From assembly GCA_051879015.1 (NCBI GenBank), contig JBJELF010000040.1, positions 2,823 through 66,822 on the forward strand: 64,000 bases of DNA, given 5' to 3'. The position numbers were made by a program, and so were the translations under genes. Shown in pieces: positions 2,960-44,443 of this stretch. Below the pieces are notes generated by a model. The model saw only the letters and a program-made list of their open reading frames with translations, was not told the DNA's origin and searched no databases. The stretch comes from Lachnospiraceae bacterium (GTDB taxonomy: Bacteria > Bacillota > Clostridia > Lachnospirales > Lachnospiraceae). The first letter of the stretch is position 1. Each line of letters starts with the position of its first letter.

Positions 2960-4612
2960 ATGTCATTTACTCACCTGCATGTGCATACCGAATACAGCTT
3001 GCTGGACGGCTCATGTAAAGTGAAGGAATTGGTACAGAGAGCCAAGGATTTGGGAATGGACAGTCTTGCCATCACAGATCATGGTGTTATGTACGGTGTA
3101 ATTGATTTTTATCACGCAGCCAAAGAAATTGGCATTAAGCCGATTATTGGCTGCGAAGTTTATGTAGCTCCAGGTTCTCGCTTTGACCGAGAAAAAAATG
3201 TCAATGGAGATGACCGATATTATCATCTGATTTTATTGGCAGAAAATGACTTGGGATATCACAATCTAATGAAGATTGTTTCTTACGGATTTACAGAAGG
3301 ATATTATTATCGTCCACGTGTCGATAAGGAAATTTTGAGAACCTATCATGAGGGCATTATCTGTTTGAGTGCCTGCCTGGCGGGCGAAGTACAGCGCTAT
3401 TTGGCTAGGGATCAGTATGAGGAGGCAAAGGAGAAAGCCCTTGAATATCAAGAAATTTTTGGAAAAGGAAATTATTTTCTGGAATTGCAGGACCATGGAA
3501 TTCCAATGCAGCGCACTGTCAATACCAGCTTGCTGCGTATGAGCCGAGAACTGCAGATTCCGTTGGTAGCCACCAATGATATTCATTATATCAATGCCAG
3601 TGATGCAGAAGCTCACGATGTTTTGCTCTGTATTCAAACCGGAAAAAAAGTCAGTGACGAAAATCGTATGCGTTACGAGGGCGGACAGTATTATCTTAAG
3701 TCGGAACAAGAGATGAGGGAGCTGTTTCCTTATGCTCAGCAAGCTTTAGATAACACTCACCGTATTGCAGAGCGCTGCAGCGTGGAGATTGAGTTTGGTG
3801 TACAGAAGCTTCCCAAATTTCATGTTCCAGAGGGGTATACGGCTTGGGAGTATCTCAATAAGCTCTGTGAGGAGGGAATGTATCAGCGTTATCCCGATGC
3901 AACGCCGAAATTGTGGGACAAACTTTACTATGAGTTAGACACTATCAAAAATATGGGATATGTGGATTATTTCCTGATTGTGTGGGATTTCATTCGTTTT
4001 GCCCGCAGTAAGGATATCATGGTAGGACCAGGGCGTGGCTCCGCAGCTGGCAGTATTGTTGCTTACACTTTGGGGATCACCAACATTGACCCAATTCGTT
4101 ATGATTTGATTTTTGAGCGATTTTTAAACCCAGAGCGTGTTTCCATGCCTGATATTGATGTGGATTTTTGTTTTGAGCGCCGTCAGGAGGTTATTGATTA
4201 TGTTATTGAAACTTATGGTAAGCGGCAGGTGGCTCAAATTGTGACTTTTGGTACCATGGCTGCTCGCGGTGTCATCCGTGATGTGGGGCGTGTGCTGGAT
4301 TATCCTTACGCGTATTGTGACAGCGTGTCAAAGATGATTCCTGCTGAACTCAATATTACTATTGAGAAAGCATTGAAGATGAATCCTGAGTTAAAGCAGC
4401 TTTACGATACCGATGAGCGTACCAAAAACCTGATTGATATGTCCCTTCGTTTGGAGGGATTGCCAAGGCACACTTCCATGCATGCAGCCGGTGTGGTGAT
4501 TAGTCAAAAGCAGGTCGAGGAGTATGTACCCTTGTCGAGAGGTTCTGACGGTTCGGTAGTTACTCAGTATGTTATGACCACATTAGAGGAGTTAGGTCTT
4601 CTTAAGATGGAT
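2960..4612 (+). CDS. dnaE: DNA polymerase III alpha subunit DnaE, exon 1 (PHP domain and first part of the palm; 551 codons)
   Basis: MSFTHLHVHTEYSLLDG PHP motif and the SMPDIDVDFCFERR palm aspartates. It ends ...EELGLLKMD. The listed ORF then reads 6 codons into the intron (VRIVR, stop at 4628-4630). Confidence 0.9.
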
Positions 4613-5669
4613 GTGCGAATTGTTCGCTAACGAAACACTCCAGAAATGGAAACAAGTTAGCGGAGCAAGGAAATGAAATATTTGAGTACAGTTGGTACAA
4701 AAGTGGCTAGAGCCGCCTGCTGGAAAAAATAAAGTAAGGAACTTGTTTAACTGTTTGTTTGATTAGAATAGTGAAATTCTATTTGTTGGGTAAAGGTCGA
4801 TACCCAATCCCCTAAGACTCCGTTATGCTGTTTGGTCTTAATGCCAAATGGTATAAAGCACGGTGAAGTCGGCTGAAAAGTGCCTAAATGGCTGAAATAT
4901 ATCAGTAGTATTGGTATAAAAGTGGCTAGAGCCCACCTGTATGAAAGTATAAAGTAAAAAGTATGGTGGCGAAGTAAATCGGGGGTCCTTAAGAGAAATC
5001 TTTAAAATATAATATGCCTACACATCAGGAACTACCGTATGAAAGGCTCGTAATTTAAGACCGAAACGAAAGTTTCGTTGTCCCAATTGGGATTTTAGTC
5101 GCAGTAATTTTATTGTCCATTGAGATTACTGTACTTAACCAGTAAGGGTTAAGTGTTCTTATTCCATTCGACTAACGGAAGAAAGAATGTCTAACGGGTT
5201 AAAGGTAGAGGCTAAGTTATAATAATAAAGGATAGAACAAACGGAACAATTGAACCCTAAAAGAAAATGTTAATGCTATTAAGAGCAGATGTTTCTAACA
5301 AGTAGGAAATGACTTGTGAATTTAGGGGGCAGCAGCCCATAGTAGCGATGAAGCGGAGTAATGTCCGTGGAGCGAAGGGGCATAGTCGTAGATTAGAATA
5401 TTGTAAGATAGGTTTAAGACTAAATCCTGCAATGGAGTCTGAAAAGGCATACCTTGAAGGAATAATCATTGAAATCTTAGGAATGGAAATCTACAATAAT
5501 GTAGAATAAGGGTATAATAATCAATTCTGACAATATTCGAAAATAGATTACCGAAGTCTATTCATCTACGCTGGAACGCCGTGTGCGGTGAAAGCCGCAC
5601 GCACGGTGTGAAGTGGGGGAAAACGACCCGTAACAGAAAATGCTGACGGTGTTCGTTACCTATCACTAT
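4613..5669 (+). mobile_element. ORF-less group II intron (dnaE intron 1, 1057 nt)
   Basis: 5' end is GTGCG. Domain V at 5576-5609 is ACGCCGUGU-GCGGU-GAAA-GCCGC-AC-GCACGGUGU (34 nt, GAAA tetraloop, 2-nt AC bulge). The domain VI basal stem pairs AGUGGGGG (5612-5619) with CCU-A-UCACU (5659-5667), with a bulged A at 5662, the 8th nt from the 3' end. The 3' end is UAU. There are stops in all frames and no ORF over 70 aa. Excision joins KMD to FLGLRTL. Confidence 0.8.
5576..5669 (+). ncRNA. Intron 1 catalytic domain V plus extended domain VI
   Basis: Read directly from the sequence as described for intron 1. The lower D5 helix begins A-CGC, so the triad is CGC rather than AGC. D6 spans about 58 nt, compared with the usual roughly 35 nt. 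Confidence 0.7.
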
Positions 5670-6270
5670 TTTTTGGGATTGCGTACACTGACGGTCATTC
5701 AAAATGCTGTGAAAAATGTAAAGAAAAATCGTGGTATTGACATTGATATCGACCATATTAATTTTGATGACAGGAAGGTCTTTGATTCTGTTGGTACAGG
5801 TAGATGTGAAGGTATTTTTCAATTAGAAAGTTCGGGCATGAAAAATTTCATGAAGGAATTAAGACCAGAAAATTTGGAAGATATCATAGCAGGTATTTCC
5901 CTGTATCGTCCAGGACCGATGGAGTTTATTCCAAAGTATTTAAAAGGGAAAAATGCCAAGGATTCGATTCAGTATGACTGTCCTCAGCTTGAGCCAATTT
6001 TGAAACCAACCTACGGGTGTATTATTTATCAAGAGCAGGTCATGCAAATTGTTCGTGATTTGGCGGGCTACACTCTTGGACGAAGCGATTTGGTGCGCCG
6101 TGCCATGTCCAAGAAAAAAACAAAAGTTATGGAACAGGAACGCAAAAACTTTGTATACGGAAACGAGGCAGAGGGAGTCAGAGGCTGTGTTGCCAATGGC
6201 ATTAGCGAGAAGACAGCCAATCAAATTTATGATGAAATGATTGATTTTGCAAAATATGCCTTTAATAAGT
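5670..6270 (+). CDS. dnaE: DNA polymerase III alpha subunit DnaE, exon 2 (601 nt)
   Basis: Begins FLGLRTLTVIQ and contains GIFQLESSGM, ISLYRPGPME, IIYQEQVMQI and LVRRAMSKKK. It ends ...DFAKYAFNK plus the first nt of the Ser codon. The ORF-track residues before F (MLTVFVTYHY) are intron sequence. Confidence 0.9.
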
Positions 6271-7234
6271 GTTCGACCCGTTCTAGCTTTAAATAAACAA
6301 AGAGCTAGCACTCTTTTAGGAGTAAGAAACTAAAAATAGGAGAACTAATAATCTGATTGAGTGGAATGATGGAGTAACGCCCTGAAACACTCTCCCTAAT
6401 ACTCCGACTGGCTACACAAGAGGAAACTCTAGTAGTTAGAAGTTCGGTGAAGTCGGCAGAAGTAAACCTAAACTGATTAAAAATCAAGAGTAACATTGGT
6501 ACAAAAGAGCCTAGAGGATGCCTGTGTGAAAAAAGATATAATAAAGGCATGGTTTATGATATGCCGGGGGTCTACAAAATACCTATGGTGAGAATGTCGT
6601 GGCATCTACACGGCTGACGAACCAGCGAATTTAAGAGTCTATATGAAGCTTATAGGGAAACCCATAAGGACGCAGATGCGTCGTTGGTGTGGATTAGTAA
6701 GAATTTTTGTTATGAAACTCCATACAGTGTTATAGGCACTGTCAAGCCAACAGGATCAGAGCTAGGCACCTAAGGGTATATATGTACAGATAAGATTATT
6801 GGTACGGGGAAAGGTATCAGGCTGAGTTAATCGGTAAGTGGACGAAGAATAATAAGCCACTGAACTGGTGCCGAAAAGTAGAGGTCGCACCTATGAAATT
6901 TCTGTAATGGAAATGGAGGAATGGCCTCAAGTCGGTATAAGAATAATAGGATATTTAAGCACCTATAAAAATGCCAGATGGGTTAATGATAAATCCATAG
7001 AAAGGAACACCACAAGGAGGAATTATTTCGCCAAAACGGAACAATTGCTTACAACCGTGTAACAAACAATTCAAAATAGGTGTTTTGTTAATCTCTATAC
7101 CAACATGGATGAACTAGCATAGTTGTGTTGGTTGAATTCTATATCGATGGAACGCCGGATGCGCTGAAAGGTGCATGTCCGGTGTGGACCGGGGGAAAAA
7201 CTGGAGATCACATCAAAGGTTTACCTATCGGTAT
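6271..7234 (+). mobile_element. ORF-less group II intron (dnaE intron 2, 964 nt), homologous to intron 1
   Basis: 5' end is GTTCG; a register shift of 1-2 nt would encode the same protein. Domain V at 7153-7186 is ACGCCGGAU-GCGCU-GAAA-GGUGC-AU-GUCCGGUGU. The domain VI basal stem pairs ACCGGGGG (7189-7196) with CCU-A-UCGGU (7224-7232), with a bulged A at 7227, the 8th nt from the 3' end. The 3' end is UAU. It shares CGGTGAAGTCGGC, TTGGTACAAAAG.G.CTAGAG, GGGGGTC and TTACCTATC blocks with intron 1. No ORF over 81 aa. Confidence 0.8.
7153..7234 (+). ncRNA. Intron 2 catalytic domain V plus extended domain VI
   Basis: Same architecture as in intron 1, including the flanking CTGGAACGCC / GATGGAACGCC context, the CGC triad and the GGGGGAAAA start of D6. 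Confidence 0.7.
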
Positions 7235-8454
7235 CTCATGCTGCTGCTTATGCAGTGGTTGCCTATGAGACTGCCTGGCTCAAATATTATTATCCGGTAG
7301 AGTATATGGCAGCTTTGATGACTTCTGTGATTGAAAATGTGAGAAAAGTGTCAGATTATATGCAGACTTGCCGTCAGATGGGCATTGAAATTTTGCCCCC
7401 AGACATCAATGAAGGACAGAGTGAGTTTTCCGTTCATGGTGATAAGATTCGATACGGTCTGTCCGCACTGAAAAGCCTGGGAAAATCTGTTATTGATTCT
7501 ATAGTGGAGGAGCGAGAACAAAATGGCAAGTTTTTGACCCTCAAGGATTTTATCAGCCGCATGGAGGGCAAGGATATCAACAAGCGAGTGATTGAGAACC
7601 TGATTAAGGCTGGGGCTCTCGACAGTCTTCCTGGTAATCGTCGTCAGAAGGTGATGACTTACCCCAAAATGATGGAGCAAGTAACAAGAGAGCGCAAGGA
7701 TAATGTGATTGGGCAAATGTCCCTGTTTGATTTTGTGGAGGAAGAAGATAAAAAGGACTTGGAGATTACCTTTCCTGATGTGCCTGAATACGAGAAAAGC
7801 GAGCTGCTTGCTTTTGAGAAGGAAATCATGGGAATTTATGTCAGTGGACATCCTCTTGAGGATGATGTAGAATTATTAAAGAAAAATACCAACGCTGAAA
7901 CAAAGATGCTGTGGGCAGATGAAGAGACTGGAGAGATTCTGTTAAAGGAAGGAATGACATGCCGCATTGGAGGTTTGATTACAGATAAAACTGTGCGCCC
8001 TACCAAGAATAACCAGATGATGGCATTTTTTACATTGGAGGATATGAAAGGGAGCGTGGAAGTGGTGGTCTTTCCCAAAATTTACGAGAGATACCGGGGC
8101 TCCATTGAAATTGAGAAGAAAGTGCTGGTAGAAGGACGTGTTAGCCCGGGAACGGATGAGCAGGCAAAATTAGTTTGTGAAAAAATTATCCCATTTGAGG
8201 AGATCCCAAAACAGGTATGGATTCAGTTTGAGAACTTAGATGATTGGCAGCGACAGTCTGGATTTTTTCAGCAAATGTTGGTTGGAAAAAGAGGAAATGA
8301 TCAGATTGTCATCTATATCAAAAATCCGAGGAGTTACAAGAAATTGCCGTCTTCCTGCAATATTTCTGCTACTAAAGAAAATATCGAAAATTTTGTGCAA
8401 AAATTTGGAAAAAGTAATGTGAAAGTTATAACAACTCCTATTGAAAATAAATAG
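7235..8454 (+). CDS. dnaE: DNA polymerase III alpha subunit DnaE, exon 3 (fingers, HhH and OB-fold tail)
   Basis: Begins (S)HAAAYAVVAYETAWLKYYYPVEYMAALM and continues IRYGLSALKSLG, then an OB-fold region. Stop at 8452-8454. The three exons sum to 3474 nt, or 1157 aa, a normal DnaE size. Confidence 0.9.
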
Positions 8455-44260: not shown

Positions 44261-44443
44261 TATGATACCAGGTTCAAAAGGTCATATAATTTCATGCAAG
44301 CATGAAATTGTATGACTTTGGGACCCGCTAAAACATGAGAAAGTAGCCAAAATAGGGCGATTTCTCATGTTTTCGGATTGCGTGAGCACGAAGTGCGAAG
44401 CAATCCATAAGTATCAAAGGGGCAAAATACTTTTTGAGCCTTT
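44261..44443 (+). repeat. Longest (composite) copy of the structured repeat, with four consecutive hairpins combining the family A and family B modules
   Basis: H1 pairs 44281-44297 with 44300-44316 (gtcatataatttcatgc / gcatgaaattgtatgac). H2 pairs 44330-44341 with 44362-44373 (aaaacatgagaa / ttctcatgtttt). H3 pairs 44375-44381 with 44400-44406 (ggattgc / gcaatcc). H4 spans 44416-44443 (aaaggggcaaaa-tac-tttttgagccttt). Confidence 0.75.

Follow-up and report, generated by a model that had tools for sequence, protein, structure and literature searches.

A 64,000-nucleotide stretch of Lachnospiraceae DNA (contig JBJELF010000040.1, positions 2,823 to 66,822), hereafter called the window, contains a dnaE gene split by two group II introns, the first of which, intron 1 (4613-5669), is the subject of this study. 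With both introns removed, the joined segments 2960-4612, 5670-6270 and 7235-8454 form a single open frame of 1,157 residues, and the spliced DnaE carries all five Pfam domains (PHP, Pol III alpha, finger, HhH and OB). The three exons are in frame, and every DnaE domain and the catalytic residues are intact. Asp551, encoded by the last codon of exon 1, aligns gap-free with residue 618 of Thermus aquaticus (Taq) Pol III alpha. Taq D618 (E. coli D555) is the third catalytic aspartate in the structures of the two polymerases (Bailey et al. 2006; Lamers et al. 2006). As the neighbours of dnaE are a pyruvate kinase gene upstream and a phosphofructokinase gene downstream (pyk-dnaE-pfkA), the site is a chromosomal housekeeping locus; it is also carried by Logan runs SRR30616809 and SRR30616816. 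No description of a group II intron at the LKMD/FLG site of dnaE was found in the literature.

In Rfam, intron 1 matched the group II family RF02004, which covers domains I to IV (D1-D4), at 4746-4993 (53 bits against a gathering threshold of 34.5, E ~1e-9), and the domain V/VI family RF00029 (clan CL00102) at 5574-5669 (56 bits against a gathering threshold of 40, E 1.3e-9). The translation of exon 1 ends with ...TTLEELGLLKMD (...LGLLKMD), and the 5′ boundary reads GAT (4610-4612) followed by GTGCGAATTGTTCGC from 4613 (GAT/GTGCGAATTGTTCGC, 4610-4627). The 3′ boundary reads ...CCTATCACTAT/TTTTTGGGA at 5659-5678, and exon 2 reopens after 5669 with TTT TTG GGA, giving the translation FLGLRTLTVIQ... 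As a preliminary description made from the letters had held, GUGCG begins at 4613 directly 3′ of the Asp codon and the last intron nucleotides are UAU (5667-5669); both ends fit the group II rule of 5′ GUGYG and 3′ AY. The intron and the elements at its borders, including the intron-binding sites (IBS) that pair with exon-binding sites (EBS) in the intron, are as follows.

4613-5669, forward strand: whole intron 1, 1,057 nucleotides (nt), group IIB of bacterial class B, without an open reading frame (ORF-less), from the Rfam matches and the restored frame.
4600-4605, forward strand: putative IBS2, UCUUAA, in exon 1, A/U-rich, with six Watson-Crick pairs to 5055-5060.
4606-4612, forward strand: IBS1, GAUGGAU, the final seven bases of exon 1, pairing with EBS1 at 5115-5121; its GAU encodes Asp551.
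4613-4617, forward strand: 5′ GUGCG, invariant in 15 sequences, with G4615-C4616 as epsilon.
5670, forward strand: first base of exon 2, U, the presumed IBS3; U in all 10 complete relatives.

To place intron 1 among its relatives, species-representative genomes were scanned with a degenerate domain V pattern, giving 119 loci, mostly from Bacillota (L001-L119), and metagenomes were scanned with the first 20 intron bases, giving 18 loci (L121-L138). Eighteen relatives were recovered, 17 of them at LKMD/FLG: L105 and 16 metagenome loci at ...G(L/M)LKMD/ of dnaE-like genes. L105, from a Cellulosilyticum metagenome-assembled genome, carries the same intron at the same codon, with a length of 3,139 bases and an ORF of 619 amino acids (aa) in domain IV. 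L133 (contig OKSC01008815.1) is a copy outside dnaE, at ...UUAUUAUGGAU/UUUUAAAUGG, where the AUGGAU match to IBS1 is kept, a position expected for ectopic retrotransposition; AUGGAY lies upstream of the intron in every relative, this ectopic copy included. L122 shares the 20-base match and has no further similarity to the intron.

All ten complete relatives (2,817-3,170 bases) carry a reverse transcriptase/maturase gene or its remains, and the window copy is the sole ORF-less one; three further relatives run for 1.4-2.2 kb and stop short of domain V. L136, the relative nearest to the window copy, shares 92% identity with it over bases 1-805 and carries an ORF of 625 aa. Against TIGR04416 (group II intron reverse transcriptase/maturase, curated cut-off 300), the L136 protein scored 324 bits and the L105 protein 321 bits, and the L136 protein also gave a weak full-length HNH match below the cut-off (E 0.0015). 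The ORF-bearing siblings in dnaE (L136, L123, L121, L105 and others, from uncultured gut and rumen Bacillota) share with the window intron the same EBS1, insertion point and domain VI and 79-93% identity in D1-D3 and in domains V and VI (DV-DVI), but differ from it in their size of 2.8-3.2 kb, their domain IVa leader and their reverse transcriptase/maturase gene with a weak HNH match. In three of the ten complete relatives (L123, L125 and L134) the ORF is broken by stops or frameshifts, assembly errors being possible, while the ribozyme parts are intact; ORF decay is ongoing in the lineage. Identity to the window copy was 79-93% for the introns and 60-73% for the flanking exons. As the introns are far more alike than the exons, they have spread horizontally, and the window copy split from ORF-bearing copies recently relative to host divergence.

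The 3′ part of intron 1, in which the loss of the ORF is located, is organised as follows.

5387-5572, forward strand: domain IV, with stems CGUAGAU/AUCUACG and GAAUAUUGU/ACAAUAUUC and an inner 3′ hairpin at 5542-5560, from the fold.
5418-5520, forward strand: filler of about 103 bases, standing where the relatives have their domain IVa leader and reverse transcriptase/maturase ORF.
5576-5609, forward strand: domain V, with the CGC triad at 5577-5579, the GAAA loop at 5590-5593 and the AC bulge at 5599-5600.
5612-5667, forward strand: domain VI, 56 bases, from the minimum-free-energy fold, RNAalifold and covariation.
5662, forward strand: bulged A and predicted branch point, the one base left unpaired in the 3′ strand of that domain's basal helix, eighth from the 3′ end.

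Similarity to the relatives ends after GUUUAA (5417) and returns at CAAUUCUGA (about 5520). The filler in between had no match to domain IV or the ORF of L136, to any of 141 fetched loci, or to the rest of the window. In 14 of the 14 relatives reaching beyond domain III, this place is taken by a conserved domain IVa leader, UUGUUAAGGUAGCCGnUGnGCGAAACGAACUAACC, followed by GGAGGUGAU and a start codon; the leader is absent from the window. As leader and ORF are both gone, the deletion took the presumed protein-binding domain IVa as well. The only ORFs inside intron 1 are 5309-5509 (forward strand, 66 aa) and 5257-5469 (reverse strand, 70 aa), neither with a Pfam match at E<=1. The preliminary description had reported ORFs of just this size, without reverse transcriptase motifs, and was right in this; it had assigned them to the region of domain IV, and their actual extent is domains II and III plus the first part of IV. 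A tblastn search with five related intron proteins gave a best E of 1.4 in intron 1, hence no ORF fossil, and no reverse transcriptase was found in the 64-kb window. Two hallmarks of an autonomous mobile element are thus missing from the window copy: the domain IV ORF for a reverse transcriptase/maturase, and the lineage's conserved leader in domain IVa, presumed to bind the protein with high affinity. Counts of promoter and terminator motifs inside the intron equalled the shuffled expectation.

Domains V and VI are canonical. In the RF00029 alignment the lower helix of domain V consists of nine pairs, ACGCCGUGU (5576-5584) with GCACGGUGU (5601-5609), and the upper helix of five, GCGGU/GCCGC, capped by GAAA. 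The minimum-free-energy fold of 5574-5669 alone (-40.8 kcal/mol, z = -4.69, 0 of 200 shuffles as good) reproduced both domains, so that Rfam alignment and fold agree on the domain V geometry given in the preliminary description, with its nine-pair lower helix, AC bulge, five-pair upper helix and GAAA loop. The 14 pairs of domain V are 99.3% paired among the relatives, three of them compensatory. In domain VI, AGUGGGGG is paired to CCU-A-UCACU both in the minimum-free-energy fold and by RNAalifold on 10 relatives, and 8 of 21 pairs are compensatory, including two in the basal helix below the bulge (UA/GC and GC/AU). A5662 is invariant in 10 sequences within a helix whose pairs covary, and its position fits the group II rule of a bulged A 7-8 bases before the 3′ end; the closing helix with A5662 unpaired, proposed earlier from the sequence, is thus upheld by fold, alignment and compensatory changes. 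The domain had also been singled out as long: its 56 bases are confirmed, but this is the normal length for the intron lineage and not peculiar to the window copy.

Covariation was assessed in two alignments. For D1-D3 (15 sequences, 14 distinct; an Rfam-like model with 191 pairs), 98.5% of cells were standard pairs, 74 of 191 pairs were changed on both sides against 4-9 when partners were slid, and 0 of 500 shuffles scored as high. For the domain IV hairpin with DV and DVI (10 sequences, 43 pairs), 98.6% of cells were paired, and 13 of 43 pairs were compensatory against 0-2 when slid. Both domain IV stems are altered on both sides between the window and L105, and the hairpin at 5542-5560 has two compensatory pairs, one of which, a G-C to A-U change, is private to the window copy. 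Broken pairs in the window copy numbered 0 of 43 and 2 of 196, no excess over the ORF-bearing relatives. As broken pairs are not in excess and a private compensatory change has occurred, the ribozyme is not decaying. The preliminary description had let its proposal stand or fall with covariation support for the D1-D6 fold, and that support is strong. Its overall call of a group II intron, with GUGCG, a CGC-triad domain V, a domain VI branch-point A and no maturase ORF, agrees with Rfam, folding, covariation and the restored DnaE frame, and all five sequence features it had listed are present where it had placed them, far beyond chance.

The identity, class and boundaries of the intron, its fold and covariation, the loss of its ORF and leader, and its descent from ORF-bearing relatives are established directly by these data. 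Taken together, they indicate that 4613-5669 is very probably a group IIB intron of bacterial class B that is ORF-less and structurally intact, derives from a mobile ancestor homing to dnaE and is now confined to splicing.

The elements of domains I to III, with helix numbers of the tested model, are listed below.

4618-4624, forward strand: 5′ strand of stem I(i), seven invariant pairs with 5245-5251, closing domain I.
4625-4662, forward strand: stem-loop 1 of the class B double-stem insertion, CGCUAAC/GUUAGCG with inner UCCA-GAAA-UGGA (helices 2 and 3, two compensatory pairs).
4663-4748, forward strand: stem-loop 2 of the insertion, GAGCAAG/CUUGUUU (helix 4, three compensatory pairs).
4674-4737, forward strand: copy of a domain IC2 module, inserted into the stem-loop 2 loop, 81% identical (52/64) to 4893-4957.
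4751-4760, forward strand: 5′ strand of stem I(ii), pairing with 5235-5244 (helix 5, three compensatory pairs).
4766-4807, forward strand: hairpins IA (4766-4784) and IB (4786-4807) (helices 6 and 7, nine compensatory pairs).
4795-4800, forward strand: alpha, GGUCGA, in the IB loop.
4809-4985, forward strand: domain IC, the RF02004 core, closed by CCCC/GGGG, from the Rfam alignment, its Rfam-like helices tested by covariation.
4820-4863, forward strand: IC1, with the four-base bulge AAGC (4856-4859) as epsilon-prime.
4870-4981, forward strand: IC2 arm, with receptor-like CCUAAA...UAUGG.
5013-5018 (UAUGCC) and 5210-5216 (GGCUAAG), forward strand: 11-nt-receptor-like motif seen in the sequence itself, with covariation in the adjoining helices 18 and 19.
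5054-5060, forward strand: EBS2, UUUAAGA, in a joiner ahead of two small hairpins (5059-5079 and 5081-5092).
5115-5121, forward strand: EBS1, GUCCAUU, in the eight-base terminal loop of ID3 (stem 5101-5112/5121-5132).
5168-5173, forward strand: alpha-prime, UCGACU, complementary to 4795-4800 and covarying with it.
5252-5330, forward strand: domain II (helices 29-32, 11 compensatory pairs).
5335-5381, forward strand: domain III (helices 33-35), with a weak RF01998 match over 5295-5380.

The pairing between alpha and alpha-prime changes in concert, being GUCGA/UCGAC in the window and GCUGA/UCAGC in the L125 group. The epsilon-prime bulge AAGC projects from a helix (4820-4823/4860-4863) that has a compensatory pair, and the 11-nt-receptor-like motif is a putative zeta receptor for the GAAA loop of domain V. 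EBS1 and IBS1 form seven Watson-Crick pairs in L105, but five plus two G-U pairs in the window, because the window exon has GAU and AAG where that of L105 has GAC and AAA. In 13 of 16 relatives the EBS2 joiner is paired to the exon at positions -12 to -8; one of the relatives, L131, shows a matching change on both sides. A candidate EBS2 in the IC2 arm, UAAGAAGU, forms eight pairs in L105, yet its pairing is inconsistent across relatives, whereas that of the joiner is consistent. The pairing RNAalifold itself proposed for the IC region (helices 8, 9 and 11) had zero compensatory pairs and was rejected in favour of the better Rfam-like pairing. The inserted IC2 module folds like its source at 4893-4957; the duplication is present in L121, L132, L133, L136, L137 and L138, and absent from L105, L123-L126, L131, L134 and L135. 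As it is common to ORF-bearing relatives, the duplication is older than the loss of the ORF.

Published marks of class B are the CGC triad, an EBS2 flanked by two stem-loops and, within I(i,ii), a double-stem insertion; those of its beta sublineage are the IA hairpin, a stem 5′ of alpha-prime and an EBS1 loop of 8-9 bases (PMC4024640). The window intron shows all of them, including a CGC triad (C5577-G5578-C5579) in place of AGC as well as the double-stem insertion (4625-4748) between I(i) and I(ii) with five compensatory pairs. Location of epsilon-prime in a four-base AARC-consensus bulge of domain IC1 marks class IIB (PMC12350094), and the AAGC bulge at 4856-4859 agrees with it. Class B is limited to Firmicutes and has IIB-type RNA, and classes C-F are without an endonuclease domain (PMC4424553); the named relatives are Bacillota, such as the Cellulosilyticum genome. 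Class IIC, which the CGC triad might suggest, is ruled out by EBS2, the seven-base IBS1, the IIB-type epsilon-prime bulge, the 630-base domain I and the lack of an upstream terminator hairpin.

For the RNA, comparison with the introns of Bacillus anthracis pXO1 gave the same placement; on the protein side, pairwise alignments covered the proteins of the relatives, the window copy itself being without one. In the second pXO1 intron, which matched RF02004 at 66 bits, the triad is CGC; in the first, to which RF02004 gave no match, it is AGC. These are presumably B.a.I2 and B.a.I1, respectively. The L136 protein aligned over its full length with the B.a.I2 protein, including the C-terminal nuclease region (34% identity, E 2e-90), whereas the relatives' proteins aligned with the B.a.I1 protein in the reverse transcriptase part only (E 1e-49). 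B.a.I2, a class B intron, thus resembles the window intron in RF02004 family and CGC triad, but it is ORF-bearing, plasmid-borne outside housekeeping genes and has two alternative 3′ splice sites (PMC4024640).

The closest described ORF-less relative is C.te.I1 of Clostridium tetani, a class B group IIB intron (PMC4024640, PMC3919590). It shares with the window intron the domain IA hairpin, the stem just 5′ of alpha-prime and an ORF lost without a protein remnant in domain IV, but it lies between surface-layer protein ORFs, is alternatively spliced with a shifted 5′ splice site, and has lost EBS2, the bulged A and the domain VI loop motif, splicing by hydrolysis (PMC4024640). The window intron, in contrast, keeps the canonical GUGCG boundary, EBS2 beside two hairpins and the bulged A, and it splits one essential gene at a fixed codon. 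The ORF-less TeI3 introns of Thermosynechococcus elongatus are likewise bacterial group IIB introns derived by deletion from an ORF-bearing parent, but they belong to a chloroplast-like lineage, exist as many mobile copies mostly outside genes, and carry a deletion within domain IVb that keeps domain IVa and both ORF ends, the protein acting in trans (PMC2882425). ORF-less group II introns of plant and algal organelles are similarly splicing-only and fixed in housekeeping genes after protein loss (PMC4424553); they are often degenerate and dependent on nuclear factors, whereas the window intron is fully canonical and in a bacterial host.

The following course is modelled from these features. 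The ancestor would have been a mobile intron homing to the LKMD/FLG codon junction of dnaE, with a gene in domain IV for a reverse transcriptase/maturase of about 620 aa with a weak HNH endonuclease match. In the window copy, the roughly 103 unrelated bases of the filler have replaced the leader of domain IVa, the ribosome-binding site and the entire ORF; with these lost, the intron would no longer move autonomously and would survive by splicing only, inside an essential gene. EBS1 and EBS2 would hold the end of exon 1 (4600-4612), and domain V with its CGC triad would serve as the catalytic centre. In standard branching, the 2′-OH of A5662 would attack the 5′ splice site at G4613 to give a lariat, and the freed exon 1 would attack after U5669, joining GAU to UUU. 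The predicted spliced junction is ...AAGAUGGAU/UUUUUGGGA... (AAGATGGAT/TTTTTGGGA), and removal of intron 2 as well would yield the 1,157-residue DnaE. The window intron is therefore, in this model, most likely a splicing-only element that would form a lariat at A5662. As it lies in an essential gene after the catalytic Asp codon, splicing would have to be efficient in vivo. We lean towards splicing that proceeds without a cognate maturase, either as self-splicing in the manner of C.te.I1 or with host factors.

Several points weigh against this account. The EBS3 partner was not located, and could not be by covariation because the first 3′ exon base is U in all 11 sequences; delta and gamma were likewise not located in the intron, EBS2 is short and A/U-rich, and the window copy has mismatches at two D1 pairs of the tested model. 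The sequences in the covariation alignments are close relatives, so that many of their changes reflect common descent, and they also served to derive the structure. Splicing is predicted from sequence, fold and covariation, and many group II introns with a perfect fold still need protein help in vivo. The view of the genome is that of the 64-kb window, so a maturase may be encoded elsewhere, and according to a 2015 review (PMC4424553) a bacterial genome with an ORF-less intron nearly always has a related ORF-bearing one as well.

These last points bear on the possibility, which we consider doubtful but the most serious of the alternatives, that a class B maturase acts in trans from a related ORF-bearing intron elsewhere in the genome, as in T. 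elongatus. The proteins of co-occurring related introns may act in trans according to the same review (PMC4424553), such action has been shown experimentally in T. elongatus (PMC2882425), and the independent assembly L120 (a contig of Logan run SRR30616809) breaks inside domain V, at window position 5606, which could reflect a de Bruijn graph branch from another intron with the same domain V in the sample. However, the window holds no reverse transcriptase, and the lineage-conserved domain IVa leader is wholly lost, whereas domain IVa and remnants of the ORF persist in the ORF-less introns of T. elongatus. The broken ORFs in 3 of 10 complete relatives show that the lineage tolerates protein loss, and C.te.I1 is a class B precedent, self-splicing robustly in a genome without an intron protein (PMC4424553, PMC4024640).

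Splicing might also proceed by hydrolysis rather than branching, as in C.te.I1 (PMC4024640), branching being dispensable after loss of mobility. This is unlikely because the branch motif is intact: C.te.I1 has lost the bulged A and the domain VI loop motif, whereas here A5662 is invariant and, like the helix that flanks it, intact, with covariation in support. It is somewhat more improbable still that the intron remains mobile as a compact ORF-less element driven by the protein of another intron, in the way T. elongatus ORF-less introns move (PMC2882425); the EBS/IBS pairings of the window copy are good, but none of 19 stretches from two collection scans was a second ORF-less copy of the lineage, and the domain IVa leader is missing. 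That the intron is dead and this dnaE a pseudogene beside another active polymerase gene is very improbable: the maturase and its binding site are lost, one gene holds two introns and splicing is so far predicted, but the three exons are in frame with DnaE domains and catalytic residues intact, broken pairs are not in excess and a private compensatory change is present, and the pyk-dnaE-pfkA context is the usual housekeeping one. A phage origin was also considered and rejected: blastn against 50,697 phage records gave short similarity in domain III and domains V/VI only (the known introns of LPJP1, AR9 and PBS1 among them), viral contigs gave no match to the 5′ 20-mer of the intron, and the locus lies on the chromosome.

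On our preferred reading, of an intact intron confined to splicing, the window intron is an ordinary, textbook member of the known class B, and as such adds no new kind of RNA. Its interest lies in its site after a catalytic codon of an essential gene, in the complete loss of domain IVa and in the ORF-bearing siblings at the same site. A compact (1,057 nt), apparently intact intron and siblings that differ from it by 7-21% in the ribozyme regions offer a ready comparison for the requirements of a group II ribozyme that has lost its maturase and domain IVa, and the position in an essential gene makes maturase-independent or host-assisted bacterial splicing directly testable. The lineage also exhibits horizontal spread of a group II intron among diverged dnaE genes at an invariant motif, a behaviour usually linked to inteins and group I introns.

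Within the same dnaE, intron 2 (6271-7234) splits AFNK/SHAAAYA, the boundaries 6269-7232 giving an identical protein. It is of class B type (RF02004 136 bits, CGC triad) and ORF-less, with GUUCG rather than GUGCG at its 5′ end, and keeps a 25-aa reverse transcriptase fossil (APIKMPDGLMINP, a stop and KGTPQGGIISP) at 6959-7033 (E about 2e-8), whereas intron 1 has none. The dnaE of L125 also holds a second class B intron, at YGCIVYQ/(E)QVMQIVRD, about 3.4-6.7 kb after the start of the first. From intron 1, intron 2 and this second L125 intron, three highly conserved DnaE motifs (LKMD/FLG, YQ/EQ and AFNK/SH) are therefore intron sites. We tentatively suggest, as a joint proposal whose truth we regard as less than likely, that the two maturase-less class B introns of this essential replicative polymerase gene, in a free-living bacterium, splice without any intron-encoded protein, and that class B lineages, like inteins, prefer the most conserved catalytic motifs of dnaE as homing sites. 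If true, the window would hold a bacterial counterpart of the domesticated organelle introns. Bacterial group II introns are generally held to avoid housekeeping genes and to show no preference for conserved sites, a view that a preference for conserved dnaE motifs would contradict.

In several ORF-bearing relatives (L105, L125/L134, L126/L128 and L131), an additional small ORF, equipped with a ribosome-binding site of its own, lies after the stop of the reverse transcriptase gene and before domain IV's 3′ strand. These ORFs differ by sublineage, some resembling small membrane or zinc-ribbon proteins, and may be cargo inside group II introns. By a rough count among L001-L119, ORF-less spacing was seen in 8 of the 34 domain-V-anchored loci with a findable D1 core motif (L009, L015, L033, L060, L068, L077, L085 and L089), and ORF-less class-B-like introns may thus be commoner than the literature suggests. 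Elsewhere in the window, a further structured RNA, Clostridiales-1 (RF01699, 96.6 bits), lies at 44263-44416, consistent with a Clostridia host.

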